A DNA stretch of 64,000 nt from an uncultured Lachnospiraceae bacterium (GCA_947626915.1 CANQUA010000008.1:135-64134), one strand, 5' to 3'; positions 1-36,596 are shown, counted from the stretch's first letter. Translations and numbers: made by a program. The notes: generated by a model not told the origin, from the sequence alone.

Positions 1-1
1 G

Positions 2-274
2 CGGCTCGATATGGACGAACGCACGGTGGTTTATGATGACGAGGAAATCCCCCTGACGGCGCGGGAGTTTAATATCATCTACAAGCTGCTGTCCTATCCG
101 GGCAAGACCTTCACCCGCACCCAGCTCATGGACGAGTTTTGGGACGCGGAAACGAACACTGCGCCGCGTGCCGTGGACGTTTATATGACGAAGCTGCGGG
201 GGAAGTTTGAGAAATGTACGGAATTTGAACTCAGGACCGTTCACGGTTTGGGCTACAAGGCGGTGATACTGTGA
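2..274 (+). CDS. OmpR-family response regulator, C-terminal winged helix (5' end outside window)
   Basis: LTAREFNIIYKL...TRTQLMDEFW...AVDVYMTKLR...RTVHGLGYK; frame is open to the window edge. Confidence 0.9.
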   Translation, partial: RLDMDERTVVYDDEEIPLTAREFNIIYKLLSYPGKTFTRTQLMDEFWDAETNTAPRAVDVYMTKLRGKFEKCTEFELRTVHGLGYKAVIL

Positions 275-1371
275 GGCCGGATTCAAGGTTAAGGCGGCTT
301 CTGTTCTCTCTGAGAAGTTATGCTGCCTTTTTTCTGCTGATGTCTTTCGTGATCACCTGCTGTATGCTGCTGTTTCTGAACGCGCTGGCGGGCTCCATGG
401 AAATCGCCTATACTGAGCGCGGGATTCGTCTGGCCGCTGTCACAACATTCGTCAACGTAATCTTTCTGAGTCTGCTGTGTACCGCAATCGACGGCGTGCG
501 CCGGAAATATATGGTGGAACGCCCAGTGCGGCGGATCGTGCAGGGGGCAGAAAAACTCATGCAGGGCGACTTTTCCACACGAATCGAGCCCTATCATGGG
601 ATTGATGAACGATCCGGCTTTGACACGATCATCGACTATTTCAACCGCATGGCGGAAGAGCTTTCCGGCGTGGAGACCTTGCGGACGGATTTCATCGCCA
701 ATGTGTCCCACGAATTAAAAACGCCGCTGGCCGTCATGCAGAATTACGGAACCATGCTCCAAAGTCCCGATCTGACCGAAGCGCAGCGGATGGACTACGC
801 CAGGGCGATCACTGAGCAGTCCCGCCGTTTGGCTGACCTTATTACGAATATCTTGAAACTGAACCGTCTGGAAAACCAGCAGATTTATCCCGCCGCAAAG
901 CGGTACGATCTTGGCGGGCAGCTTGCCGAGTGCCTTCTGAACTTTGAAAGCACCTGGGAGAAAAAGAACATCGGCATTGAGACGGCTCTCGAAGAAGAAG
1001 TATTTGTGAAATCGGACGGCGAGCTTTTGTCCCTCGTCTGGAACAATCTGTTCTCCAACGCCCTGAAATTTACGGAAAGCGGCGGCACGGTGTCCGTGGC
1101 TTTGAAAACGGAGGGAGATTATGCCGCCGTCCGGGTGTCAGACACCGGCTGCGGTATTTCTCCGGAAATCGGCAAGCACATCTTTGAGAAGTTTTATCAG
1201 GGCGATACCTCTCATGCCACACAGGGCAACGGCTTGGGGCTGGCGCTGGTGAAACGGGTGGTGGATATTGTCGGCGGTACCATTTCCGTAGAGAGTGAGG
1301 TCGGAAAAGGCAGTACCTTTACTGTAAGAATCAGGAGGGCGGCGGATGGAGACATTCAAAAGAATCCTTAA
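271..1371 (+). CDS. Sensor histidine kinase (2 TM, HAMP, HisKA, HATPase)
   Basis: ANVSHELKTPL H-box, NLFSNALKF, DTGCGI and GNGLGL boxes; start overlaps regulator stop. Confidence 0.93.
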   Translation: MRPDSRLRRLLFSLRSYAAFFLLMSFVITCCMLLFLNALAGSMEIAYTERGIRLAAVTTFVNVIFLSLLCTAIDGVRRKYMVERPVRRIVQGAEKLMQGDFSTRIEPYHGIDERSGFDTIIDYFNRMAEELSGVETLRTDFIANVSHELKTPLAVMQNYGTMLQSPDLTEAQRMDYARAITEQSRRLADLITNILKLNRLENQQIYPAAKRYDLGGQLAECLLNFESTWEKKNIGIETALEEEVFVKSDGELLSLVWNNLFSNALKFTESGGTVSVALKTEGDYAAVRVSDTGCGISPEIGKHIFEKFYQGDTSHATQGNGLGLALVKRVVDIVGGTISVESEVGKGSTFTVRIRRAADGDIQKNP

Positions 1372-2260
1372 AAAGATATTCTGCCTGCCTCCTCTCCCAA
1401 CGGTTCTGGCAGCGCTTTTCGGCTACGGCTTTGTGATCGCCGTGTTTGCGTTTGATATACAGAACCCAATCCTGCAGTACGCCTCCTACATTGCTTCTGC
1501 CTATGCACTGATCGTCAGCATTACAGGGCTTGTCTATATCAATACGGCGATAGGCGGCGTCAGAAAATTTATCTCCGATCATCCGCTGATGAAAAAATTC
1601 CGCTCCACCAAGATGGGTGAAAAATACATGACCGATGTGCGTTTCCGGGCAGGAGTCTCGCTGTATCAGGGCTTTTTCATCAATCTCCTGTATATCGCCA
1701 TGAAGCTGGTATCCGGCATCGTGTACCGCTCCGCATGGTTTGCCGCGCTGGCGGTCTATTACCTTCTGCTGGCCGTGATGCGCTTTCTTTTAGTACGGCA
1801 GCTGAACATGCAGGACAAAGCGGCGGAACTCAGACGCTACCGGCTGTGCGGGATCCTGCTTTTGTTTATGAACCAGGCGCTCGCGGGAATTGTAATATTC
1901 ATGGTCCACCAGAACCGCGGATTTGAGTATCCGGGGCTGCTGATCTACGCCATGGCCGCCTATTCCTTTTATGCCGTCACCATTGCCATCATCAACATCA
2001 TCAAGACCCGGCGGCACAAAAGCCCGATTCTCTCAGCAGCCAAAGCCATCAGCTTTGTGGCGGCGCTGGTGTCCGTTCTGTCCCTGACCACTGCCATGCT
2101 CTCCCAGTTCGGCGGAGAGGACAACGCGGAATTCAACAGGACCATGACCGGCGCTGTAGGCGGCGGGGTCTGCATCATTGTGATCGGCATGGCAATCTAT
2201 ATGATCGGACGGGCAAATAAAAATCTGAAAAAAATTGAAATTAACAATTCTCGAACATAA
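1346..2260 (+). CDS. Multi-pass membrane protein of unknown function
   Basis: 304 aa, many hydrophobic segments; AGGAGG RBS upstream. Confidence 0.75.
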   Translation: METFKRILKKIFCLPPLPTVLAALFGYGFVIAVFAFDIQNPILQYASYIASAYALIVSITGLVYINTAIGGVRKFISDHPLMKKFRSTKMGEKYMTDVRFRAGVSLYQGFFINLLYIAMKLVSGIVYRSAWFAALAVYYLLLAVMRFLLVRQLNMQDKAAELRRYRLCGILLLFMNQALAGIVIFMVHQNRGFEYPGLLIYAMAAYSFYAVTIAIINIIKTRRHKSPILSAAKAISFVAALVSVLSLTTAMLSQFGGEDNAEFNRTMTGAVGGGVCIIVIGMAIYMIGRANKNLKKIEINNSRT

Positions 2261-2325
2261 CTTGAATATTTTGCAAACGGTTACCTGATACAATAACCGC
2301 GGGATCCTGAAAGGAGCAGAAGATC

Positions 2326-2709
2326 ATGGAAGAAAAGAAAGAGACTTTCACCTATACCTATTCCGCAAAAGAGCAAGAAGAAATCAAAAAGATCCGGGAC
2401 AAATACGCACCCCCGGCAAAAGAGGAAACCCCGATGGAGCAGCTTCGCCGACTTGACGAGAGCGCCACAAAGGGAGCAGCCATCGTCTCTCTGATCGTCG
2501 GGATCATCAGCGCTCTGATTTTGGGGGTTGGGATGTGCTGCACGATGCTGCCCGGCTGGGAGCGGTATTTCGTTCCGGGCATTGTAATCGGCGTGTCCGG
2601 CATCATCGGCATCATCGCGGCCTATCCGATCTACACACACATGGTAAAGCGTAAGAGGGAAAAACTTGCGCCGGAAATCATGCGGCTATCGGATGAGCTG
2701 ATGAAGTGA
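2326..2709 (+). CDS. Small 2-TM membrane protein
   Basis: AAGGAG RBS; charged N-terminus followed by two hydrophobic helices. Confidence 0.75.
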   Translation: MEEKKETFTYTYSAKEQEEIKKIRDKYAPPAKEETPMEQLRRLDESATKGAAIVSLIVGIISALILGVGMCCTMLPGWERYFVPGIVIGVSGIIGIIAAYPIYTHMVKRKREKLAPEIMRLSDELMK

Positions 2710-2720
2710 TTTTGTCAGTC

Positions 2721-2754
2721 AGACCGCTTACTGAAAACGTAGGCGGTCTTTTTC
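2721..2754 (+). terminator. Intrinsic terminator
   Basis: AGACCGCTTAC...GTAGGCGGTCT stem followed by a T-run. Confidence 0.75.
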
Positions 2755-2803
2755 TGTCATATTTATTGAAAACGCATTGATGAGGATACCGTAAAACTTT
2801 CTT

Positions 2804-3288
2804 ATGCCGCCCCACCCTTGGGACGGTCTGCTTTTTCACGGACAAAAAGCGGCTGTTCACGGACATTTCCGCAGGGCGCCCGTTCTTTTGCTATCCTGTT
2901 GTCGTGAGGATGCGCAAAGCGGCACATTGACAGCAGCAGAAAGGCAGTATCGTACTTCTATCTGTCTGCGCGGTATGCAGGGTTCGATAGCCCTTTTGGG
3001 ATAGCGAATAAAACGATCCTGCCGTCCATCGGCGCGGCGCCTTGGGTTATTATTTTTCTGTTTTGCAAAACATGTATCTGGAAACAAATCATGAATGGAG
3101 GGTATCTGATGCGTCATTTTTATTTTCGTCTCATTCTTGGGATCGTCTGGCTGGCCGCGGCGCTGTTTTGTATCACGGGCGCCGATCTCCCCTTTGCGGC
3201 GCTGTACGCCGCGTTGGGCATTCTGTTCCTGTGATCCGCCTGTTTAGTCCGGAAAAAGGTGGGAAGCAGCAAAGATGATCGGGAGTAA
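2804..3288 (+). pseudogene. Decayed membrane-protein genes (frameshift near 3001; in-frame TGA at 3232-3234 in MRHFYFRLILGIVW...)
   Basis: Hydrophobic reading continues across a -1 shift at 3001; ORF from ATG 3109 (GGAGGG RBS) is interrupted by TGA and reads on to TAA 3288. Confidence 0.45.
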
Positions 3289-3589
3289 CGAAAGGAACCG
3301 AACGGAACTTCTGAAAAAGGCTTATCTGATCATGGCGTTCGCCCTGAAACCGAAACTGCTCCTGCTGGACGAGCCTGTGAACGGACTGGATTTTCAAAGC
3401 ACCGAATATCTGTATGAGCAGATCCATCACTACCGACAATGCGGCGCCGCCCTCTTCTCGTCCCACATCCCGGAAAGCATCTGTCTTACATCTGACCGGG
3501 TGCTGGTACTGGAGCAGGGGCAGATCCGGAGAAGGTTTGCGGGACAGGAAATCGAAGCCGCCAGGATCCGGGAGGTGCTGAAAGAATGA
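3275..3589 (+). pseudogene. ABC ATPase C-terminal remnant
   Basis: LLLLDEPVNGLD Walker B/D-loop and FSSH H-loop present; no Walker A or signature motif. Confidence 0.8.
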
Positions 3590-4492
3590 ACATCCTGAAA
3601 GCCCTCTTAAAACAGCTTCTGGGCGCCAGGTATGAGCGCGCCGGAAAGAGCCTGATGGTTTATCCTGTATGTTTCCATCCACGCTGCGGGAATTGAAACC
3701 GAGATTGCTGCTTCGGTTCTCTTTCTGACGGCGGCGGCCGTTTCGGCGGGGATCCTGTGGCAGGCCTTTCATTCTCCGGGGAACGCAGACAGCATGACCG
3801 GGCTGTTTCTGCTGCCGTTTGCGGGCAGAAACATGACGTTTTCCATCGTCCTGGCCTTTACCGGCTACACGCTGGTCACAAAAACGTTTCCTGTATTGAC
3901 GCTGTTCTTTGCGGTCCATGAATGGAGCGCGGCGCAGATCGCCGTGTCACTGCTCTGCGCCTGTCATGGCTGTTTCCTGACCGCCGCCGCTCTGCCGTTT
4001 CTGTTGGGGCAGTTCGACGGGCTCCCCGTCCTGCCGCTGGGATTCGCCATCCTGTGCCTGAATACGCCGGTCTGCATATTGCTGTCCTGCGACCCGGCGC
4101 TGGAGCAGGCGGTCCGGATGCTGCCCGGACAGGCCCTCCGCTTTTGTCCCCGCTATTGCGTCTTCCTTTCTTTCGTCAACGCGGCGGTGAGCGGCGTGTA
4201 TCTGGCGAGCTGGCAATGGCGGTACGGCGGCGTGGACGGTCCGGAAATCGCCGCCGCGCTGCTGATCGCTCTGCAGAGCGCGATCCTGTCTGTCCTGCTG
4301 GAATGGTTTTGCCCGATCCGCAGCTGGAAGATCGAAAGCGATCTGTGGCAACACCCGCGCAAATACGTTGTGCCCGTCGTCATGCTGCTCCTCGCAGGGC
4401 TGATCGGTATCTGGCCCGTAAGCCTATGGATCCTGTTCTGCGCCGTTTTAGCAGAAATTTTAATCTTACCAAAAATCGCAAGGAGGATTTGA
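3586..4492 (+). pseudogene. ABC-type permease, frameshifted near 3660
   Basis: ATG 3586 overlaps the ATPase stop; MNILKALLKQLLGARYERAGKSL shifts frame into ILYVSIHAAG... and joins the 3794-4492 ORF. Confidence 0.65.
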
Positions 4493-4496
4493 ACCC

Positions 4497-4718
4497 ATGA
4501 AAAATACGAAACGCTGCCCAAAGTGCAATTCGCAGAATATTGTCCGCGTCCCCGACAACCAGAACCGCCACGCAAGCGGCAACAACATTTATACCTCAAC
4601 TTTTACGCTGATGAAAAAAATCCCCGTAATACGCTATGTCTGCTGCGACTGCGGCTATGTGGAGAACTGGGTCGAAACCCAGAGCGGACGCATGGAGATC
4701 AAACGCACTTTCGGCTAA
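4497..4718 (+). CDS. Small zinc-ribbon protein
   Basis: CPKC and CCDCGY motifs; AGGAGG RBS. Confidence 0.75.
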   Translation: MKNTKRCPKCNSQNIVRVPDNQNRHASGNNIYTSTFTLMKKIPVIRYVCCDCGYVENWVETQSGRMEIKRTFG

Positions 4719-4763
4719 AATCCCGGCAAAACCGGTTTTCATTCAAAAACCCCCTTCGCGCTG

Positions 4764-4793
4764 TCATAGCGGACCTGCCGCCGCTCATATAGT
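4764..4793 (+). promoter_or_regulatory. sigmaE-like (mother-cell) promoter ahead of the small ORF and LSR1
   Basis: TCATAGC-15 bp-CATATAGT; ATA to CATA spacing 17 bp. Confidence 0.55.
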
Positions 4794-4825
4794 ATACAGC
4801 CATTCTTTGAAAGGAGGCTGCACAT

Positions 4826-4984
4826 TTGAAAAGCAGCGAAAAGCCGGCGGCCGCAGGCGTATGCAAAAGTGTTTTCAAAAGCGGCGAAAACACGATTTCA
4901 GGAGAACAATTCACCCAAATGTGGATCCAGCTGATCAATCAGATTGAAAAGGACAGAGCTCTCCATGCTGCCCGGAAAGAATGA
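4826..4984 (+). CDS. 52-aa small protein not in the ORF track; candidate recombination directionality factor for LSR1
   Basis: AAGGAGG RBS then TTG; MKSSEKPAAAGVCKSVFKSGENTISGEQFTQMWIQLINQIEKDRALHAARKE*; function inferred from position. Confidence 0.6.
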   Translation: MKSSEKPAAAGVCKSVFKSGENTISGEQFTQMWIQLINQIEKDRALHAARKE

Positions 4985-5028
4985 CAAGCCTTTCTCCGCA
5001 GGCCCCTGCCTGCGCGGAAAAGGCTTGT
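4984..5028 (+). other. Stem-loop between the small ORF and LSR1
   Basis: ACAAGCCTTT...GCAGG / CCTGC...AAAGGCTTGT imperfect inverted repeat. Confidence 0.55.
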
Positions 5029-5051
5029 TCCGTCTCTGAGGAGGGCCAAAC

Positions 5052-6605
5052 ATGAAAGCCGCCATTTATTGCCGCTTATCCGAAGAAGACCGAAACAAGC
5101 AGTCCGAAACCGACGACAGCTGCAGCATACAAAATCAGAAGGCCATGCTGCTGCAATACACGATGGAACAGGGGTGGGAACTTTACAACATTTACAGCGA
5201 CGACGACTACACCGGCTCCGACCGGCGGCGTCCGGAGTTTAACCGCCTGCTGCGGGACGCAGAGCAGCGCAAATTTGATATTGTCCTCTGCAAGACCCAG
5301 TCGCGCTTTACCCGCGAATTGGAATTGGTGGAAAAATACATCCATGGGCTGTTCCCAATATGGGGGATCCGCTTCGTCAGCATTGTCGACAACGCGGATA
5401 CCGCAAATAAGGGAAACAAAAAGTCCCGTCAGATCAACGGGCTCGTCAACGAATGGTACCTGGAGGATATGTCTGAGAATATCCGAAGCGTCCTAACAAA
5501 CCGGCGGAAGAACGGTTTTCACATCGGCGCATTCGCCCTTTACGGTTACAGGAAAGACCCCGAACAAAAGGGACACCTGATCGTCGACGAGGAAGCCGCG
5601 GCCGTCGTCCGCGAGGTATTTGCCCTTTTCGCCCAGGGTTACGGAAAAACCGCGATCGCCCGTATGCTCAACGACCGGGGCATACCCAATCCCACGGAAT
5701 ATAAACGCCTGCACGGGCTGCGCTACCGGCAGCCGAAGATGAAAAACAGCACCCTATGGAACTATTCCGCCATTTCGGATATGCTGACCAACGAAATCTA
5801 CATCGGCAATCTGGTCCAGGGCAAATACGGCAGCGTGTCCTACAAAACAAAGCAAAACAAGCCGCGCCCGAGAAGCGAATGGTACATCGTCGAGGGGACG
5901 CACGAGCCGGTCATTGACCGGGAACTGTGGGACAGGGTACAGGCACTGGCCGCCCAGAAAGCCAGGCCTTTTGCCGGCGGCGCCATCGGATTATTCGCCG
6001 GAAAAGCCCGCTGCGCAAACTGCGGTTATGTCATGCGCTCTTCCAAAACCCACAATAAACATTACCTGCAGTGCCCCAGCCGCCATCTGTCGAAAGACGC
6101 CTGCACCGGCTCTTTCATCTCTGTGGAAAAACTGGAACGGCTCGTCCTGGACGAGCTGAACCGTCTGGCAGCGGAGTATCTGGACCAGGACGCGCTCGAA
6201 CAGAACATCCGGCTCTGCGACAATCTGCAGGACCGGAAAGCCCGCCTGCTCTCCGATCTGGCGGCCTATCAGAAAAAGATCGCGGAGTATTCCAAAGGCA
6301 TACGGGAGCTTTACATGGATAAGGTCAGGGGGATCCTGTCCGAAAGCGATTATGCAGCGCTGTCAAAGGATCTTGCCGCGGAACGCAGCCGCCTGGAACG
6401 CGTCGCCGCCGACGCAGAAACGCGGCTGTCCGAACTCGAAGCCGGCATTGCGGCGGGCGGCCATCGCCGCGAGCGAATCGAATCCTATACCCGCCTGGAG
6501 CATCTCACCCGGGAGATCGTGGAAACGCTGATCGGTCACATATCGGTCGGCAGGCGTATCCCCGGCACCAGGGACGTCCCGATCGAGATCCACTGGAACT
6601 TTTGA
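5052..6605 (+). CDS. Large serine recombinase LSR1 (resolvase, recombinase, zinc ribbon, coiled coil; SpoIVCA/CisA-like)
   Basis: YCRLS catalytic motif, DDDYTG, KTQSRFTR, THEPVI, CANCG...C zinc ribbon; uninterrupted 517 aa. Confidence 0.95.
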   Translation: MKAAIYCRLSEEDRNKQSETDDSCSIQNQKAMLLQYTMEQGWELYNIYSDDDYTGSDRRRPEFNRLLRDAEQRKFDIVLCKTQSRFTRELELVEKYIHGLFPIWGIRFVSIVDNADTANKGNKKSRQINGLVNEWYLEDMSENIRSVLTNRRKNGFHIGAFALYGYRKDPEQKGHLIVDEEAAAVVREVFALFAQGYGKTAIARMLNDRGIPNPTEYKRLHGLRYRQPKMKNSTLWNYSAISDMLTNEIYIGNLVQGKYGSVSYKTKQNKPRPRSEWYIVEGTHEPVIDRELWDRVQALAAQKARPFAGGAIGLFAGKARCANCGYVMRSSKTHNKHYLQCPSRHLSKDACTGSFISVEKLERLVLDELNRLAAEYLDQDALEQNIRLCDNLQDRKARLLSDLAAYQKKIAEYSKGIRELYMDKVRGILSESDYAALSKDLAAERSRLERVAADAETRLSELEAGIAAGGHRRERIESYTRLEHLTREIVETLIGHISVGRRIPGTRDVPIEIHWNF

Positions 6606-6636
6606 CCGCAGATCGTTCTTACAGGATCGCCCCATC

Positions 6637-6858
6637 TGCCGCCAGGTCCTCAAACAGATCGGTGATCGGATCACCCTTGGACTGAAACTCGCAGGCGCTG
6701 AAGGGCACGCCGCCCGCCGCCTGGGGCCAGATCCCGGCCGTATGGTCGATATAATAGGGACCCAGACCGGAGGCGGCGATCTGCTCCGCGCTCAGGCCTT
6801 TGGTCAGCTGATGGATGATCGATGCAATGATCTCCATGTGAGCCAGTTCTTCCGTACC
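6637..6858 (-). pseudogene. cotJC: cotJC piece B (middle 74 codons of the manganese-catalase-family spore coat protein)
   Basis: GTEELAHMEIIASIIHQLTKG...YYIDHTAGIWPQAAGGVPFSACEFQSKGDPITDLFEDLAA. Confidence 0.92.
6849..6858. repeat. att core, left junction of the LSR2 element
   Basis: CTTCCGTACC, identical to 12777-12786; followed by arm GAAGCACCGAAAATGCTCCT. Confidence 0.9.
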
Positions 6859-7002
6859 CACAGAAGCACCGAAAATGCTCCTCGGCTCTGCCGGGCAAAG
6901 CGGGACCAGACGTGTGATCTCCTACTAAAATCCCAAGAAAAATCCCTGTTCTTTTACCGGAATGTCCGTTATACTATAAGTAACTTCTGAGGAGGACCGT
7001 TT

Positions 7003-7665
7003 ATGTACCGAAAGATACTGATCATCGACGACGATATCTATATTGGGAACCTGATGGACGATGCTTTGAGCAGGGAGGGCTATCAGATCTTCCACGCGTA
7101 TTCCGGCACGGAGGCGCTGCTGTTTTTGGCGCAGGCCAGGCCGGACCTGATCCTGCTCGACCTGATGCTGCCGGGACTTTCCGGAGAAGAGCTGCTGCCG
7201 CAGATCAAGGGGATCCCCGTCATTGTCGTAAGCGCGAAAGTGGACGTGGACGACAAAGTCAACCTGCTGCTCGGCGGCGCGGCGGACTACATCACCAAAC
7301 CATTTCAGGTCAAAGAGCTTCTGGCCAGGGTCGCCGTGCAGTTCCGCAGGCTCGATCCGGCCTCTCCCGCCCCGGTCCTGGAGTACGGCGGCCTCCGGCT
7401 CGATCCCGTTACCCATATCGTAACCGCCGGCCAAAAGGAACTGAAACCTACCAGAACGGAATACGCGATCCTGAAAATACTCATGCAGAACCCCTCGCAG
7501 ATCGCAACCAAATCGCTGCTTTTAGACCGCATAAGCGCAGATACGCCGGACTGCACAGAAAACTCTCTTAAAATGCACATCAGCAATCTCCGGAAAAAGC
7601 TGCGTGAAGCGGACGGCCAGGATCACATCGAAGCGGTCTGGGGGATCGGGTTCCGGCTGCGCTGA
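7003..7665 (+). CDS. OmpR-family response regulator
   Basis: ILIIDDD, DLILLDLMLP, DYITKPF, AVWGIGFR; GAGGAGG RBS. Confidence 0.95.
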   Translation: MYRKILIIDDDIYIGNLMDDALSREGYQIFHAYSGTEALLFLAQARPDLILLDLMLPGLSGEELLPQIKGIPVIVVSAKVDVDDKVNLLLGGAADYITKPFQVKELLARVAVQFRRLDPASPAPVLEYGGLRLDPVTHIVTAGQKELKPTRTEYAILKILMQNPSQIATKSLLLDRISADTPDCTENSLKMHISNLRKKLREADGQDHIEAVWGIGFRLR

Positions 7666-7671
7666 AAAAAT

Positions 7672-7714
7672 CTTTACGGTTTCTTTACCGGTTCCTTTAC
7701 CGCTTTCTTTACGG
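7672..7714 (+). promoter_or_regulatory. Four CTTTAC(G/C)G direct repeats, probable response-regulator binding site
   Basis: Copies at 7672, 7683, 7695 and 7707, ahead of the ABC ATPase gene. Confidence 0.6.
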
Positions 7715-7758
7715 TTCCATGATACGATACCGGCATCAAATCAAGGAGGTATGCCTTT

Positions 7759-8673
7759 ATGGACTATGTTCTCAGAACAAACGCTTTGACCAAAAGCTAT
7801 AAAGGGGCCAAAGCGCTGGCCGGTCTCACGATGAATGTGCCCAAGGGAGCGATCTACGGGTTCGTGGGGAAAAACGGCGCCGGCAAGACGACGCTGATCC
7901 GCCTGATCTGCGGCCTGCAGGAGCCGGATTCGGGAGACTACACGCTGTACGGCAGAAAAAACGCGGAAAAGGACATTACAAGCTCCCGCCGCCGGATGGG
8001 CGCGGTCGTGGAAACGCCCGCCATTTATCTGGATCTGACGGCGGAGGAAAATCTCAGGCAGCAGTACCGGATCCTGGGACTGCCCTCGTTTGACGGGCTT
8101 TCCGACATTTTAAAACTGGTGGGGCTGGATCAAACCGGGAAAAAGAAAGCGAAAAACTTTTCCCTGGGGATGCGGCAGCGGCTCGGGATCGCCGTCGCTC
8201 TCGCCGGGGATCCGGACTTTCTGGTTCTGGACGAACCCGCCAACGGACTCGACCCCCAGGGGATCATCGAGATCCGGGAACTGATCCTGGAGCTGAACCG
8301 CAGGCAGCAGATCACAGTCCTGATCTCCAGCCATATCCTGGACGAACTGTCAAAGTTCGCGACCCATTACGGTTTCATCGATGGCGGGCGCATGGTAAAA
8401 GAAATCAGCGCCGAAGAACTGGAGGCCGCCTGCCGGAAATGCGTCCGCATGGAGGTCAGCAGCACGAAAGCCCTCGCCCGCGTCCTCGACAAAATGAAGA
8501 TCGACTATACGATCCTGAGCGGCACGACCGCCGACGTCTACGCGAAAGTAAACATCTCCCGCCTGAGCAGCGCGCTTGCAGGGGAGAACTGCGAACTGAT
8601 CTCGGCGCAGGAACGGGATGAAAGTCTGGAAAGCTATTATGTGAGTCTGGTGGGAGGCGGAACGAATGAATAA
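7759..8673 (+). CDS. ABC transporter ATPase (BcrA/lantibiotic-immunity-like)
   Basis: GKNGAGKT, FSLGMRQR, LVLDEPANGLD, ISSH. Confidence 0.93.
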   Translation: MDYVLRTNALTKSYKGAKALAGLTMNVPKGAIYGFVGKNGAGKTTLIRLICGLQEPDSGDYTLYGRKNAEKDITSSRRRMGAVVETPAIYLDLTAEENLRQQYRILGLPSFDGLSDILKLVGLDQTGKKKAKNFSLGMRQRLGIAVALAGDPDFLVLDEPANGLDPQGIIEIRELILELNRRQQITVLISSHILDELSKFATHYGFIDGGRMVKEISAEELEAACRKCVRMEVSSTKALARVLDKMKIDYTILSGTTADVYAKVNISRLSSALAGENCELISAQERDESLESYYVSLVGGGTNE

Positions 8674-9496
8674 ACTGCTGCGGTCAAATTTTTCAAGGCT
8701 CTGGAGAGACAAACTGTTCTGGCTCTGCATGGGAGCCATGCTCATCTATGCGGTCCTGTTCATGTTAAACGGATGCAGGCAGGCGGCCGCGGATATGTCG
8801 GAATATTCGTATTCTATCGATAACTATTATTTCCATTTCGCGTTATCGATCGGACTCTTCTGCTCGGTGTGCAGCAGTATGTTTTTCGGGACGGAATACA
8901 GCGACGGAACGATCCGGAATAAGATCATCGTCGGACACACAAGGACCGACATCTATCTGGCGAGCCTGATCACCACCTTTGCGGCGACGCTGCTGATCAT
9001 GTCGGTGTGGCTCGTCGGAGCGCTCGTCGCCGTCCCTGCGCTTGGCTTCTGGAAAATAGGCGCTTTGCGGCTGCTGAGCTTCCTGCTGATCGCCGTTATG
9101 TTCGTCCTCGCGCTTTCCGCGATCTGTACGGTGATCAATTTGCTGTCGTCCGGCAAGGCCGATGCGTTTCTCATCTCGATCCTGCTGTTCATTGGCCTGC
9201 TGCTTTTGGCAAGCATGATCTACAACGGCCTCAGCGAGCCGGAAATGGTAAGCGGCGTTCAGATCACCCAGAATGGGCTCGATCTAACGGAACCTGCCCC
9301 GAATCCGAACTATGTCACCGGGATGAAGCGGGAGATCTATGATTTCATCGTCGATTTCCTGCCGACGGGACAGGGACTGCGGATGTGGCAGCTGGAGATC
9401 GCGCATCCGGTCCGGATGATCCTCTCCTCGCTGTTTATCACGGCCGTCACGACGGCGGGCGGGATGTTGGCGTTTAAGAGGAAGAATATCCAGTGA
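8666..9496 (+). CDS. ABC-2 type permease
   Basis: Six hydrophobic segments, EYSDGTIRNKIIVG motif; overlaps the ATPase gene. Confidence 0.88.
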   Translation: MNKLLRSNFSRLWRDKLFWLCMGAMLIYAVLFMLNGCRQAAADMSEYSYSIDNYYFHFALSIGLFCSVCSSMFFGTEYSDGTIRNKIIVGHTRTDIYLASLITTFAATLLIMSVWLVGALVAVPALGFWKIGALRLLSFLLIAVMFVLALSAICTVINLLSSGKADAFLISILLFIGLLLLASMIYNGLSEPEMVSGVQITQNGLDLTEPAPNPNYVTGMKREIYDFIVDFLPTGQGLRMWQLEIAHPVRMILSSLFITAVTTAGGMLAFKRKNIQ

Positions 9497-9705
9497 CAGG
9501 AATTCAGTCCGGGGGATGGTTTTCGTTATTCGGCGGATTCTTATTATCGAACAAATGATACTCGTTGCCTGATGGTTTTCGCCGCTTGATGGACGATTCC
9601 ATCATCGGATGGATTTTTGCTGCCTGATAGACGATGCCCGTCACCTGATGGATTTTCGTTACCTGACGCGTAATTCTCATCGTACGATCATAAGGGGGAT
9701 TATTT

Positions 9706-10599
9706 ATGGAAATGTGGTTATGGGCACTGAGCGGTATCATGGCAGCCGCCATTCTTTTACTGCTTCTCAAAATACATGCCCTGCAAACGGCCGCAAAGGA
9801 AATCGAGAGCGCCTTTGCCGACAGGCTCATGACTGATACCAACACGCTGATCGATCTCTCTTCCGCGGACCGGCACATGCGCCGCCTGGCAAACGGCATC
9901 AACGTCCAGCTGAGAAAGCTGCGGGAGGAACGGCGCCGTTTCGAGCAGGGAGATCTGGAACTCAAAAACGCGGTCACAAACATTTCCCACGATCTGCGTA
10001 CCCCTTTGACGGCCATCTGCGGCTACCTGGATCTGCTGGAAGAGGAGGAAACGTCCGAAAAAGCGGCCTATTATCTGCAGATCATCCGGGACCGGGCAGA
10101 GCTTTTAACGCAGCTGACGGAAGAATTGTTCCGATATTCGGTCATCCTTTCCGCCGAAAGCAGCGGGAACTGGGAGCCTGTGAATGTGGGCGGTGTGCTG
10201 GAAGAAAGCATCGCGTCGTTCTACACGGCGCTAAAAGAGCGGGACATTTCGCCAACGATCCGGATCCCGGAAAAGAAAATCGTCCGGACGCTGGACCGCT
10301 CCGCTCTGGCCCGCGTATTCTCCAATCTGCTGAACAACGCAATCAAGTACAGCGACGGCGATCTGGAGATCATCCTATCGGAAACAGGCGCGGTGATCTT
10401 CACGAACACGGCGTCCGGATTAAACGAAGTACAGGTAGGAAGACTGTTCGACCGCTTTTATACGGTCGAAGCCGCCAGGAAATCGACGGGCCTGGGCCTG
10501 GCGATCGCCAGAACGCTGATCGAGCAGATGAACGGGACCATATCCGCCGAATACCAAAATAACCGGCTGAACATTACCATCGCGCTGCCGGACGAGTAA
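9706..10599 (+). CDS. Sensor histidine kinase
   Basis: NISHDLRTPL, NLLNNAIKY, STGLGL. Confidence 0.93.
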   Translation: MEMWLWALSGIMAAAILLLLLKIHALQTAAKEIESAFADRLMTDTNTLIDLSSADRHMRRLANGINVQLRKLREERRRFEQGDLELKNAVTNISHDLRTPLTAICGYLDLLEEEETSEKAAYYLQIIRDRAELLTQLTEELFRYSVILSAESSGNWEPVNVGGVLEESIASFYTALKERDISPTIRIPEKKIVRTLDRSALARVFSNLLNNAIKYSDGDLEIILSETGAVIFTNTASGLNEVQVGRLFDRFYTVEAARKSTGLGLAIARTLIEQMNGTISAEYQNNRLNITIALPDE

Positions 10600-10601
10600 G
10601 G

Positions 10602-10644
10602 GACAACGCCTGCGGGAGTTTGGCAGCTCCTCGCGGGCGTTGTC
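10602..10644 (+). terminator. Stem-loop downstream of the kinase
   Basis: GACAACGCC...GGCGTTGTC stem; weak T tail. Confidence 0.5.
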
Positions 10645-10707
10645 TTATGGGGGCGGACGCCGCGTCTACCTGCGCCCCGTATCGGCCCACCAAAAACGTT
10701 TTCCTCG

Positions 10708-10737
10708 TTATATGGGACAAACACCGGCTCATATATT
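10708..10737 (+). promoter_or_regulatory. sigmaE/sigmaK-like promoter ahead of the small ORF and LSR2
   Basis: TTATATG...CATATATT; ATA to CATA spacing 17 bp. Confidence 0.45.
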
Positions 10738-10812
10738 AGAATACGCCGTCGATCTGCTGTACGGTTCTACACAGCAGATACCGGCTGACTCTTTTGGAAA
10801 ACGAGGGAAACA

Positions 10813-11049
10813 TTGGCTGTGAAAACCAGGGAATTCGTTTATACGGGCGGCCCCGTTCCCGATCTGGACGGACCGGAATACGCGGCGTTCCTTTTGAATC
10901 TGCAAAAAGGGATCCTCCTTTCTCTGGAGCAGAGGAACCTATTGACCGCTTCGCAGCGGGAGCGCTGTCTGGCCATGCTCAAGGATCCGTGCATACAAAA
11001 GGCCAAAGCCACGTCCGCTGGGCCCGCCGGGAAAGGGGGTTCCGCATGA
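10813..11049 (+). CDS. 78-aa helical protein; candidate directionality factor for LSR2
   Basis: GAGGG RBS; stop overlaps the LSR2 ATG (ATGA at 11046-11049); function inferred from position. Confidence 0.65.
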   Translation: MAVKTREFVYTGGPVPDLDGPEYAAFLLNLQKGILLSLEQRNLLTASQRERCLAMLKDPCIQKAKATSAGPAGKGGSA

Positions 11050-12758
11050 ACCGGTATGAGCGCCTGAACCAGAAACAAAAGGCTGTGACCACGAAGAAAA
11101 AAGTTGCGGCGTACTGCCGGGTCTCCACCGACGGCGAGGATCAGGCCAACTCGTTTGAAAGCCAAAAACGGTATTTCCGGCAGTATATCGAGCGCAATCC
11201 CGACTGGGAGCTTTACGAAATATTTGCCGACGAGGGTATCTCCGGCACAAACACCCGGAAGCGAAACGCATTTAACCGCATGATCGCCTGCGCCAAAAAC
11301 GGCGATTTCGATCTGATCATCACCAAAGAGATCTCCCGCTTCGCCAGAAACACACTGGACAGTATCTACTATACCCGGGACCTGAAAAAACATGGAATCG
11401 GCGTGATCTTTCTGAACGACAACATCCATACACTGGACAGCGACGCGGAGCTGCGCCTCGCCATCCTGTCTTCCATCGCGCAGGAGGAAAGCCGAAAGAC
11501 CTCGGAGCGTGTGAAATGGGGACAGAAACGCCGGATGGAACAGGGCGTCGTGTTCGGCAGGGACCTGCTCGGCTACGACGTCCGCGGCGGCAAATTGTAT
11601 ATCAATGAAGAGGGGGCAAAGATCGTCCGCCTTATCTTTCATAAATTTGTGGACGAGAGAAAAGGTACCCACGTCATCGCCCGGGAGCTTCGGGAGGAGG
11701 GGATCCCGCCCTGCCGCGGAAAGGAATGGCAGCATACCGTCATTCTCCGCATACTCCGCAACGAAAAATACTGCGGCGACCTGGTACAGAAAAAGACCTA
11801 TACGCCGGACTTTTTGTCCCACGAAAAGAAATACAACCGCGGACAGGAGGAATTTGTCATCCTGAAAGACCACCATGAGCCGATCGTTTCCCGCGAGCTG
11901 TTCGACGAGGCCAACCGGATCCTGGACGAGCGCTCCCGCACGGCTGCGGGAAAAGCAAGGTACTGCCATCCGGCCGCGCCAAATACAGAGGACGAACGTT
12001 CCTGCACAGTTGCAGGAAAGATCAGGTACTCCAGCCGCCACACGTTCTCCGGGAAGATCCGGTGCGGACAATGCGGCCACAGCTATGTGGCACGATATAA
12101 GACCCGCAGGGACGGGAGCCGGTACAGGGCGTGGCGCTGTCTGGAAGCCGTCCGAAACGGCCCTCCTCGTTCGGATTCGGCAGGCAGTCCGGCCGGCTGC
12201 GCATCTCCCGGTATCCGCAATGAGGATGCCGTCCATCTCATGTGCCTCGTCACAAAGGCGCTGAGATTCGACCGCTCAAAGTTCCAGGACCGTCTGCTCT
12301 CTGTGATCCGAACCGCAATCGCCACGGATGCCGGGGGCGCGGATACCGAAAAGCGAAAGGCGCGGATCCAGGCCATAGAAAACAAACGGGCCCGGCTGAT
12401 CGAACTCTATCTGGCCGGCGATGTGACAAAAGAGGAATTTACAGCCGCCAGCGCAAAATGCGACAGCGAGATCGCCGGGCTGCAGCCGGACACAGCAAAG
12501 ATGGAGCGGCAGCCGGCGCAGCCCCCGCGGAAGCAGCAGGAGCTGATCCGCGCGATGGACGGCGCGGTCTCTGAGCTTTTAAACGGTGTGGAATACGAGG
12601 ATACGTTTTACCGGCAGATCCTGGATCAGATGGTGGTGATAGACCGCGACCATATAGACGTGTATCTGCATTTTCTTCCGGTCAAATGGAGCTACACGGC
12701 CGCGGGATGCGGAAATGCTCCGCGCCGGAGACCCGCTCAACCGAAAAAGAGCCCCTGA
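11046..12758 (+). CDS. Large serine recombinase LSR2 (570 aa; start reassigned from 10794)
   Basis: AAYCRVST, FADEGISG, KEISRFAR, HHEPIVS, CGQCG zinc ribbon, coiled coil; GGGGG RBS before ATG 11046. Confidence 0.94.
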   Translation: MNRYERLNQKQKAVTTKKKVAAYCRVSTDGEDQANSFESQKRYFRQYIERNPDWELYEIFADEGISGTNTRKRNAFNRMIACAKNGDFDLIITKEISRFARNTLDSIYYTRDLKKHGIGVIFLNDNIHTLDSDAELRLAILSSIAQEESRKTSERVKWGQKRRMEQGVVFGRDLLGYDVRGGKLYINEEGAKIVRLIFHKFVDERKGTHVIARELREEGIPPCRGKEWQHTVILRILRNEKYCGDLVQKKTYTPDFLSHEKKYNRGQEEFVILKDHHEPIVSRELFDEANRILDERSRTAAGKARYCHPAAPNTEDERSCTVAGKIRYSSRHTFSGKIRCGQCGHSYVARYKTRRDGSRYRAWRCLEAVRNGPPRSDSAGSPAGCASPGIRNEDAVHLMCLVTKALRFDRSKFQDRLLSVIRTAIATDAGGADTEKRKARIQAIENKRARLIELYLAGDVTKEEFTAASAKCDSEIAGLQPDTAKMERQPAQPPRKQQELIRAMDGAVSELLNGVEYEDTFYRQILDQMVVIDRDHIDVYLHFLPVKWSYTAAGCGNAPRRRPAQPKKSP

Positions 12759-12776
12759 CAAGGAGCATTTCAGGGG

Positions 12777-12786
12777 CTTCCGTACC
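12777..12786. repeat. att core, right junction of the LSR2 element
   Basis: CTTCCGTACC preceded by arm AGGAGCATTTCAGGGGCTTC. Confidence 0.9.
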
Positions 12787-12969
12787 TACATCGGTCAGTA
12801 CCGCCTTTCCGATGTCATAGGGCATCGCGTAACGCTGGGACAGATAGCGCATGGAAGCCGCGCTTTCCCCGTCCGGACCGCCGTACTGGCTGGCAATAAA
12901 CTGGGCCAGCTGCGGATTGGGGTTCGTAATCTTTACCGGGTACTGCAGGCGTTTTTCATATCTCCACAT
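12778..12969 (-). pseudogene. cotJC: cotJC piece A (codons 1-64); reads into att sequence and stops at 12682
   Basis: MWRYEKRLQYPVKI...QYGGPDGESAASMRYLSQRY...LTDVGTE; directly follows cotJB. Confidence 0.93.
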
Positions 12970-12972
12970 ATA

Positions 12973-13230
12973 CTAACGTCCTCCTTCCCAGGGCCAGGGA
13001 CCCTGCGCCCACATCCAATAGCCGCCGGCCGGGCTGACGCTCTCGGCGGTCAGCGGGCCGTAACCGGACTGATACGCGTTCATCGCGTCGCCGCGCATCC
13101 GCACGACCGACTGATAATAGGCCAGCGCCATCTGGTCGCAGGGATGCGTATCCAGAAACAGCGCGGCATCGTCCATGGCGAAACTGGTCTGATCGATGAC
13201 ATTTAAAAGCTGCTTCTCATTCTCAGACAT
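12973..13230 (-). CDS. cotJB: Spore coat protein CotJB
   Basis: LLNVIDQTSFAMDDAALFLDTHP...YGPLT...WMWAQGPWPWE. Confidence 0.93.
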   Translation of the reverse strand: MSENEKQLLNVIDQTSFAMDDAALFLDTHPCDQMALAYYQSVVRMRGDAMNAYQSGYGPLTAESVSPAGGYWMWAQGPWPWEGGR

Positions 13231-13432: not shown

Positions 13433-13474
13433 GAAAACGACGACTCCTCTCTGACTGAATGTTTTGATATTACT

Positions 13475-13505
13475 AATTTATGAGGGAAGCGCCGTTTCGT
13501 GTATT
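13475..13505 (-). promoter_or_regulatory. sigmaE/sigmaK-like promoter of the cotJ operon
   Basis: Minus strand GAATACAC...CATAAATT. Confidence 0.5.
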
Positions 13506-35564: not shown

Positions 35565-36596
35565 ATGAAAAACAAGATCACGATTCAGGACATTGCCGAT
35601 TCCCTGCATCTGTCCAGGGCGACCGTGTCCAAGGTATTAAACAATTCCTCCGGCGTCGCGGACGATACGAGGCAGATCGTACTGTCCAAAATGCAGGAGC
35701 TGAATTATAAAAATCCAGGCCGCGCCCTCAAAAGCAGAGCCCGATCGGAACAGCGTCTGCGGCATAACTTTGCATTCCTGATGCACATGATGCCGGGTGA
35801 TCTTCATGTGGGTTCCACGATTCTGACGCAGCTGGAGCAGGAGATCCGGAAAAAAGGCTATTCCCTGACCATCCACACCATCACCGACGACGATTACCAC
35901 CGCAGGGTGCTGCCGCCCAACCTTTACATCGATCAGACCGTGGCGTTCGTATGTCTCGAACTGTTCGACAGCGGCTACACCCAGCTTCTGTGCTCCCAGG
36001 ATGTCCCGGTTCTTTTGGTGGACGCCTGCTCCGATTTTCATGAATTAGGCCTCCGGTGCGATCTTCTGATGATGGAAAACCGCTCAAGCGTTTATCGGAT
36101 GCTTTCCGCTTTGTGCAAAAGGCATCCGATCAAAACCATGGGATTTTTCGGCGACATACGCCATTGTCTCAGTTTCAGGGAACGTTACGAAGGATTTCAG
36201 CTGGCGGCGCAGGATCTGGGTCTTGAAACCGAACGGTTTCAGATCATAGACCACGATTCCCTTTTCTGGAACCCGGAATGGATCCTGCAGCGGATTCAGA
36301 AGCTGGAAACGCTTCCCGACCTTTTCTTCTGCGCCAACGATGTGCTGGCCCAGAATCTGATCCTGCGGCTTTCGGATCTGGGATACCGCGTCCCCGAAGA
36401 CGTTCTGGTCTGCGGGTTTGACGGCATCCCGACCAACGAGCCTATTATCTCCGGCCTGACGACCGTCTGCACGCCCAGCACCGAACTCGGCGTCACGGCC
36501 GCCCAGATCCTGATGAACAAAATACAGAATCCCAGGGGCTCTTCCACCAGCACCTATCTGCACACAGATATCCTTTTCCGCCATACGGCGCCTTAG
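35565..36596 (+). CDS. LacI-family regulator
   Basis: ITIQDIADSLHLSRATVSKVLN, FCANDVLA, VCGFDG. Confidence 0.93.
   Translation: MKNKITIQDIADSLHLSRATVSKVLNNSSGVADDTRQIVLSKMQELNYKNPGRALKSRARSEQRLRHNFAFLMHMMPGDLHVGSTILTQLEQEIRKKGYSLTIHTITDDDYHRRVLPPNLYIDQTVAFVCLELFDSGYTQLLCSQDVPVLLVDACSDFHELGLRCDLLMMENRSSVYRMLSALCKRHPIKTMGFFGDIRHCLSFRERYEGFQLAAQDLGLETERFQIIDHDSLFWNPEWILQRIQKLETLPDLFFCANDVLAQNLILRLSDLGYRVPEDVLVCGFDGIPTNEPIISGLTTVCTPSTELGVTAAQILMNKIQNPRGSSTSTYLHTDILFRHTAP

Follow-up and report, generated by a model that had tools for sequence, protein, structure and literature searches.

In a 64,000-nucleotide stretch of DNA from an uncultured Lachnospiraceae bacterium (GCA_947626915.1, CANQUA010000008.1:135-64134; the whole stretch is called the window, and positions are counted from its first letter), the coat gene cotJC is interrupted by a 5,928-bp element that encodes a large serine recombinase (LSR), which we call LSR2. 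We consider it likely that this element is a non-phage, non-conjugative island that was integrated into cotJC by its LSR, that carries a directionality factor timed to sporulation and that is excised in the mother cell. The attachment (att) sites, the frame of the rejoined gene, the conservation of the site across genera and a conserved small open reading frame (ORF) behind a sigmaE-type promoter motif are described below, followed by the explanations that compete with this one.

Attachment sites of the cotJC island

The boundaries of the element and the interrupted gene are as follows.

6859..12786, plus strand: integrated element, 5,928 bp with one 10-bp core copy included, bounded by two copies of CTTCCGTACC
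6849..6858, unstranded: left core copy of CTTCCGTACC, with the predicted crossover CC at 6857-6858
12777..12786, unstranded: right core copy of CTTCCGTACC, with the predicted crossover CC at 12785-12786
6833..6882, unstranded: left hybrid att site, consisting of a cotJC half-site (6833-6856), CC and an element half-site (6859-6882, CACAGAAGCACCGAAAATGCTCCT)
12761..12810, unstranded: right hybrid att site, consisting of an element half-site (12761-12784, AGGAGCATTTCAGGGGCTTCCGTA), CC and a cotJC half-site (12787-12810)
12787..12969, minus strand: cotJC piece 1 (codons 1-61), matching Pfam Mn_catalase positions 1-65
6637..6858, minus strand: cotJC piece 2 (codons about 62-135), matching Pfam Mn_catalase positions 63-150 and ending where another LSR element has its crossover
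12973..13230, minus strand: cotJB, directly upstream of cotJC (Pfam CotJB, 1.3e-28)

When both strands of the window were searched, CTTCCGTACC was present in exactly two copies, spaced 5,928 bp apart, compared with a chance expectation of 0.04 copies, and two copies were found in none of 100 shuffles. Joining the ends of the element into a circle produced the 50-bp site AGGAGCATTTCAGGGGCTTCCGTA-CC-CACAGAAGCACCGAAAATGCTCCT. The 24-nucleotide arms of this attP about CC were symmetric at 19 of 24 positions, including all of the outer 10, against a background of 6.1 ± 2.2 (maximum 16) over 8,568 positions in the window, and an independent repeat search recovered the same inverted repeat (I10). A quasi-palindromic attP of about 50 bp with a central dinucleotide, as expected of LSR systems, was thus present, while the symmetry of the reconstituted attB (7/24) was at the background level. 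The CC dinucleotide sits inside the 10-bp core of attL and attR and is common to attP and attB, for which the predicted junctions are GGGGCTTCCGTACCCACAGAAGCACC and GCCAGTTCTTCCGTACCTACATCGGTCAGT, respectively. An earlier note on this DNA had placed the att sites at 6849-6858 and 12777-12786, and these positions were upheld, since the repeat occurs only there in the window and the element ends form a symmetric attP. The same note described attP as arms of a 20-bp inverted repeat around a 10-bp spacer. The inverted repeat and its perfect outer 10 bp stood, but two 24-bp half-sites around CC are a better description than arms and spacer because the symmetry runs almost up to CC. The alternative that the repeat is a target-site duplication made by a transposase was rejected: there was no transposase, and the length of the repeat varied from 2 to 10 bp among relatives.

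Conservation of the target and position of the crossover

The same arrangement recurred in other genomes and genera. About one in three of 301 genomes sampled from the same family encoded homologues of LSR2 (45-85% identity). Among the 15 family genomes studied in more detail, 11 had the recombinase beside a cotJC fragment broken at residues 61-64. A scan of species-representative genomes returned at least 580 LSR2 relatives, of which the best 80 loci, from isolates and metagenome-assembled genomes, were taken as the set of public loci. Of these 80 loci, which belong to Lachnospiraceae, Oscillospiraceae, Acutalibacteraceae and Ruminococcaceae, 71 had a cotJC fragment broken at residues 61-64 within 3 kb. 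Cultured bacteria with such a recombinase next to a split cotJC include Lachnospiraceae bacterium M18-1 and JLR.KK009. All 53 N-side junctions broke directly after ...GAT ATx/GG, and cotJC identity stopped exactly at GG in these 53 and in 12 C-side junctions from other genomes, as well as in 11 junctions from the same family. Where both ends were known, the core shared by attL and attR always began at GG when read in the cotJC sense, and its length ranged from GG only (G293 and G167) through GGT (G253), GGTA (G089), GGGA (G098) and 8 bp (G045) to the 10 bp seen here. The consensus element arms, GGAACATTTCCGATGCTTCTCTG-GG-TAGAGAAGCCYCTGAAATGTTCC, were symmetric at 21 of 25 positions; the left arm of the present element agrees with GGAACATTTCCGATGCTTCTCTG on the opposite strand and the right arm agrees with TAGAGAAGCCYCTGAAATGTTCC in the cotJC sense. 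Because GG alone is common to all of the cores and lies at the centre of symmetry, a crossover at GG/CC is supported beyond this one sequence. The crossover would then be the GG of the glycine codon in TD(I/V)-G-TEE, that is, the CC at 6857-6858 and 12785-12786 on the plus strand of the window, and the junction limits in relatives and the attP symmetry centre agree on these positions, which the earlier note had also proposed. Over 60 related recombinase elements from Lachnospiraceae, Oscillospiraceae and their relatives interrupted cotJC at this glycine codon.

That note had suggested a search for the empty cotJC allele in related genomes. Such an allele was found in G168, a genome of the same genus, which is uninterrupted at the target and reads GAT ATC GGT ACA GAA GAA CTG GCT CAC there; its cotJC is split at another place, near residue 30. 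A look-up by CotJB identity returned one other contig, also carrying the insertion. The related elements were 2.9 kb in G293 (small ORF, LSR and one further ORF), 3.9 kb in G045 and up to 24 kb elsewhere, and the label "minimal" that had been given to the present element was dropped in view of the two smaller ones.

Breaks in cotJC also recurred near residues 24-36, about 133 and about 170-186. Loci with such other breaks were G168, G230, G022, G293, G227, G133, L066, L091, L094, L097, L118, L119, L130 and L131, and the cotJC gene of G022 was apparently in four pieces. In a minority of loci (G217 [L048], G230 [L049], L086, L102, L106, L115, L116 and L123), the module formed by the small ORF and the LSR lay at the opposite end of the element, beside the C-terminal cotJC piece, and read in the cotJC direction; the att arms of these opposite-end elements kept their orientation relative to cotJC.

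The rejoined gene and a second element in cotJC

Removal of 6859-12786 rejoined the minus-strand cotJC in frame (...LTDVGTEELAHMEII...), and the joint reads GAT GTA GGT ACG GAA GAA CTG GCT CAC, or DVGTEELAH. This joint had been predicted before and was confirmed by computation from the window sequence. The prediction that cotJC is restored was correct for the local joint but not for the whole gene, since a second LSR element (element 1) still cuts cotJC at 6635-6636; a full CotJC of 216 amino acids requires the removal of element 1 at this position as well, and a join to contig C29. All three cotJC pieces were free of lesions, and their nonsynonymous divergence (dN) from the G168 orthologue was 0.11, with synonymous divergence (dS) saturated.

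Element 1 occupies window positions 1-6636 and continues on contig C29 (35886-38955), giving a length of at least 9.7 kb that is broken by contig ends. It splits cotJC after codon ~135 with a shared core TCTGC, and its attP symmetry was best (17/24) about TC at 6635-6636. Its recombinase, LSR1, lies at 5052-6605 and has a DUF4368 tail. The last cotJC piece is on the minus strand of contig C29, at about 35739-35885.

Recombinase, small ORF and sigmaE-type promoter

The recombination genes of the island and the promoter-like site ahead of them are as follows.

11046..12758, plus strand: LSR2, a 570-amino-acid LSR (Pfam Resolvase, 5.8e-33; Recombinase, 1.5e-26; Zn_ribbon_recom, 9.6e-9)
10819..11049, plus strand: small ORF, candidate recombination directionality factor, 76 amino acids from GTG 10819 or 78 amino acids from TTG 10813
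10710..10737, plus strand: sigmaE-type promoter-like site ATA-N17-CATATATT, upstream of the small ORF

LSR2 matched the PHROG integrase family phrog_95 (4e-132), and its catalytic motif YCRVST, with S27, was invariant in 11 LSR2 homologues. It had no near-identical relative (the best was 73-74% identical in amino acids), and it matched SprA at 2e-11 only, over the catalytic and recombinase domains. A 654-amino-acid ORF from 10794 was rejected as an over-extended version of LSR2, for which the start is ATG 11046, overlapping the stop codon of the small ORF (ATGA). The island contains six genes, all on the plus strand: a regulator, a kinase, the two genes of an ABC (ATP-binding cassette) transporter, the small ORF and the integrase. 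Searches of the six ORFs with Pfam, NCBIfam and PHROG returned no virion-structure, packaging, lysis or replication genes, and the sole match in a phage category of PHROG was the integrase. None of the six ORFs was a relaxase, a coupling protein or a type IV secretion gene, although no search for an oriT was made. The statement in the earlier note that phage and conjugation genes are missing was thus in line with the gene content.

In each of the eleven family loci, a small ORF of 60-76 amino acids immediately preceded the recombinase. A profile search detected it ahead of the LSR in 68 of the 80 public loci; these 68 were the loci counted as having upstream flank, and at least several of the other 12 reach a contig end just before the recombinase. 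This conserved position in relatives supports the ORF at 10813-11049 as the partner of LSR2, a role in which it had already been proposed. The small ORF and the LSR were separated by a gap in 58 of the 68 relatives, with a hairpin in the gap of the four copies read, and they overlapped or abutted in the remaining 10, as they do here. An AlphaFold2 model of the small protein (predicted local distance difference test score, 82) had an extended N terminus followed by three helices.

Mother-cell promoters of Clostridioides difficile share a -10 element such as CATATTAT or CATATAAT at a spacing of 16-18 bp, while the -35 element is ATA for sigmaE and AC for sigmaK (PMC3789822). The motif ahead of the small ORF is in agreement with this consensus. 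The pattern ATA-N16-18-CATA[CT]ANT had two matches in the window, one ahead of the small ORF of LSR2 and the other ahead of that of LSR1. Among the 41 matches in the 3.18-Mb genome, two were ahead of spoIVA and yabP, both of which are sigmaE-regulon genes in Bacillus subtilis. In 45 of 67 related loci, the -10 motif was found 20-24 nucleotides before the small ORF, compared with 0.09 expected, and most of the remaining loci had this motif with one mismatch. A sigmaK promoter for the small ORF was rejected, the nearest AC being 11 nucleotides from the -10 box and the ATA being 17 nucleotides from it. A sigma70 alternative from a generic scan (GGGACA-17-TAGAAT, 10714-10742, 9/12 matches) was considered weaker because the positions kept in relatives are those of ATA...CATAYANT. 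In element 1, ATA-N17-CATATAGT (4766-4793) stands ahead of a 52-amino-acid ORF (4826-4984) just upstream of LSR1. This ORF shares the promoter geometry of the LSR2 small ORF, but it did not match the small-ORF profile and was rejected as a relative.

Proposed excision in the mother cell and competing explanations

According to the model that we favour, LSR2 would have integrated the island into cotJC by recombination of attP with attB at GG, and the island would consist of a recombination module (hairpin, sigmaE-type promoter, small ORF, LSR and att half-site, in this order) together with a swappable cargo, here a two-component system and an ABC transporter of the antimicrobial-peptide type. 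In the mother cell during sporulation, RNA polymerase carrying sigmaE would transcribe the small ORF and, in this copy, also the translationally coupled LSR2. The small protein would act as a directionality factor that turns LSR2 onto the two hybrid sites; LSR2 would then free a 5.9-kb circle and rejoin cotJC in frame, while the spore would retain the integrated copy. A full cotJC would additionally need a second, independent excision by LSR1 at 6635-6636. Mother-cell-timed excision is the best reading because a conserved small ORF stands behind a sigmaE-type promoter with a motif common to spoIVA and yabP, and elements of this family probably excise in the sporulating mother cell. From this arrangement we infer both when excision would occur and that the small ORF would set the direction of recombination. 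The cotJ operon itself is expressed in the mother cell (PMC3789822).

Several observations weigh against this model. The crossover was placed by symmetry and by the limits of the cores, so that the position of cleavage is a deduced one, and the promoter of the small ORF is a sequence match only. The small ORF had no significant match in Pfam, NCBIfam or PHROGs, in a PDB sequence profile search or in a PDB fold search, and it showed no similarity to known directionality factors. An exact scan of metagenome contigs for the 30-nucleotide attB, as a sign of an empty site in the same species, gave no match. Contig C11 (32315-32923) has another cotJ operon, which is uninterrupted and encodes CotJB and a 203-amino-acid CotJC that is 63% identical to the rebuilt split CotJC, and the need to restore the split gene is uncertain because of this intact operon. 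The family is also mobile. LSR-att modules were 95-99% identical in nucleotides over 1.8 kb in different species (for example, L057 and L060, L128 and L129, and L063 and L064), with host cotJB-cotJC flanks that were about 70-75% identical or unalignable, which indicates recent horizontal transfer of these modules. Related recombinases (45-71% identity) were found at the ends of 33-47-kb proviruses with portal proteins in IMG/VR (L144, L147 and L157). One of these proviruses, L157, adjoins an N-terminal cotJC fragment (residues 1-62), and therefore real prophages use the same cotJC site too. Given such a mobile family with prophage members, excision could mainly serve transfer. The near-identical modules in different species and the related recombinases on proviruses point to the module as a traded cassette, in the manner in which "SSR units" have been proposed as traded cassettes (PMC6957869). 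The earlier suggestion that the element is domesticated thus held only in part: the sigmaE-type promoter points to sporulation control, but the family moves between species and is also carried on prophages. As a separate observation, the C11 operon reads GAC ATC GGC ACC GAG GAG CTG GCC at the attB position, with 7 mismatches to the target over 24 bases.

From these observations an ordinary integrative element could be envisaged, with cotJC as no more than a "safe harbour" that is conserved but dispensable. Its excision would promote horizontal transfer independently of sporulation, and the coat function would come from the intact cotJ operon on C11. The intact paralogue on C11, the near-identical modules with divergent flanks, a cargo size that varies from 2.9 to 24 kb, the related LSRs on prophages and the other elements that strike cotJC at several other sites all fit this explanation. 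Against it stands a sigmaE-type promoter before the small ORF here and in the 45 relatives, which is found before the unrelated small ORF of element 1, spoIVA and yabP as well. LSR2 has no separate intergenic promoter region in this copy, where its ATG overlaps the small-ORF stop, and all of the cotJC pieces are still intact. We regard the safe-harbour explanation as unlikely, though it is the strongest of the competitors. A fixed, dead insertion, with cotJC a three-piece pseudogene from which neither element excises any more, is less probable still. Two independent insertions in one gene that has a paralogue, and the metagenome attB scan without a match, would be compatible with it, but no lesions were seen in LSR2, in the small ORF, at either att site or in the three cotJC pieces, and the attP arms still agree with the family consensus. 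An assembly artefact that joined two organisms inside a shared recombinase gene deserves mention because the draft genome is spread over 107 contigs, just 222 bp of host sequence separate the island from element 1 on the left, and element 1 leaves the contig. We consider this highly improbable, since no relative of LSR2 is similar enough to have given rise to a chimeric join, the same right junction (cotJB-cotJC' to the 3' end of LSR2) is present on an independent metagenome contig of 761 bp, and the 10-bp core and matching half-sites are present at both ends. Additionally, the middle and C-terminal cotJC pieces together best match the cotJC of the same genus (81%).

Relation to known intervening elements

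Sporulation-gene intervening elements with an LSR and a small directionality factor are well established, and skin, skinCd, SPbeta, vfbin, gin and yin are examples. In B. subtilis, skr overlaps the 5' end of spoIVCA and is controlled by sigmaE (PMC6957869), and both sprB and CD1234 are controlled by sporulation (PMC6957869, PMC5595907). The cotJC island resembles skin (sigK; SpoIVCA and Skr) in that an LSR element lies inside a mother-cell sporulation gene; in skin the gene of the directionality factor, under sigmaE control, runs into the 5' end of that of the recombinase, and here the small ORF, behind a sigmaE-type promoter, has a stop that overlaps the LSR2 start. In contrast, skin is a 48-kb defective prophage in the gene of an essential sporulation sigma factor, whereas the cotJC island is 5.9 kb, has no phage genes, interrupts a coat gene that has a paralogue, encodes a distantly related LSR and is known from its sequence.

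Similarities were also observed with gin in gerE of Bacillus cereus ATCC 10987 (GirC and GirX), a non-prophage intervening element with an imperfect inverted-repeat attP (PMC5595907). Its crossover has been predicted at the terminal dinucleotide of a 9-bp core, as compared with the end of a 10-bp core here, its attB has no symmetry (7/24 for the attB of cotJC), and its LSR needs a small accessory factor (PMC5595907). However, gin is 28.6 kb long, has three recombinase genes and has been proven experimentally to excise, and its target gene, host order and cargo differ from those of the cotJC island. SPbeta in spsM (SprA and SprB) and skinCd of C. difficile (CD1231 and CD1234) likewise combine an LSR with a small factor expressed from a sporulation-specific promoter. 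In most relatives of the island (58/68 loci), the small ORF stands apart from the LSR, with a terminator-like hairpin between them in the four copies read, as expected if the LSR is expressed separately, whereas the small ORF and LSR2 are joined in one operon in the present copy. Chain 9dxd, a fusion of SprA and SprB (YokA-YotN), was not among the PDB chains matched by the sequence profile of the small-ORF family, and the fold search gave no significant PDB match.

Integration into cotJC has been mentioned before. One preprint, with reference to Abe et al. 2013, lists cotJC among the genes into which phage- or transposon-related elements integrate (bioRxiv 10.1101/2021.11.22.469490), and a skin-like element has been noted in cotJC of Laceyella sacchari (bioRxiv 10.1101/2022.02.25.481979). 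The published mentions of cotJC elements that we found, Abe et al. 2013 not being among the sources covered, are single lines that give no att sites, crossover, directionality factor or regulation. What the present analysis adds is a crossover mapped by comparison, an attP consensus, a family of conserved candidate directionality factors and a sigmaE-type promoter. The intervening-element strategy seen in sigK, spsM and gerE of Bacilli and C. difficile is thus common at cotJC in gut commensal Clostridia, where it carries adaptive cargo (here a peptide-antibiotic-type transporter) and spreads between species, though it is not new in kind. Genetic manipulation of Lachnospiraceae and Oscillospiraceae from the gut is difficult, and the locus offers a recombinase, a 50-bp attP and attB, a mapped central dinucleotide and a candidate directionality factor. 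The dozens of natural variants with diverged half-sites are a candidate panel for orthogonality.

A broader proposal can be made tentatively, and we rate it at somewhat below an even chance. One coat gene of 216 codons may be rebuilt from three pieces during sporulation by two unrelated serine recombinases, each with an unrelated small partner behind the same sigmaE-type promoter. The small ORF may represent a new and widespread family of directionality factors, and the module may be a traded cassette that parks prophages and islands of 2.9-47 kb cost-free in a coat gene of gut Clostridia.

Cargo and other features of the locus

The remaining features of the island are as follows.

7003..7665, plus strand: OmpR-family response regulator (Pfam Response_reg and Trans_reg_C; NCBIfam matches under the curated cut-offs)
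7759..8673, plus strand: ABC transporter ATPase, lantibiotic-protection-like (Pfam ABC_tran; best NCBIfam match TIGR03740 galliderm_ABC, 4.5e-65, under the cut-off)
8666..9496, plus strand: ABC-2 family permease (Pfam ABC2_membrane_2; weak MutG-like match)
9706..10599, plus strand: small VanS-like histidine kinase (Pfam HisKA and HATPase_c; NCBIfam HK_VanS, 1.4e-45, under the cut-off)
10600..10646, plus strand: strong hairpin dividing the cargo from the recombination module (-36.2 kcal/mol, z = -6.0), with a counterpart kept in G245 and G167
12741..12774, minus strand: terminator-like hairpin and U-run in the cotJC sense, overlapping the LSR2 stop and the element half-site (terminator scan)

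The hairpin at 12741-12774 had a predicted folding energy of -17.9 kcal/mol with a weak z score of -1.1. In the cotJC sense, a hairpin followed by a T-run at the half-site next to the LSR stop (GCCCCTGA...TCAGGGGC TCTTTTT) was seen in most of the related junctions. Transcripts of cotJ that enter the element could end at this hairpin. Upstream of the coat genes, a sigmaK-like AC-N16-CATAAATTA was located on the minus strand at about 13474-13500, ~40 nucleotides before the cotJA start, and is known from its match to the motif alone.

A DNA search with the cargo returned no near-identical copy of the island but only cassettes that were 64-77% identical, in 74 of 401 family genomes, so that the island itself is not shown to have spread recently. 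Cassettes of regulator, ABC transporter, permease and kinase were common in the family, and one of them (G219:C4, 43242-43896) was situated ~3.5 kb upstream of the recombinase of a cotJC element.

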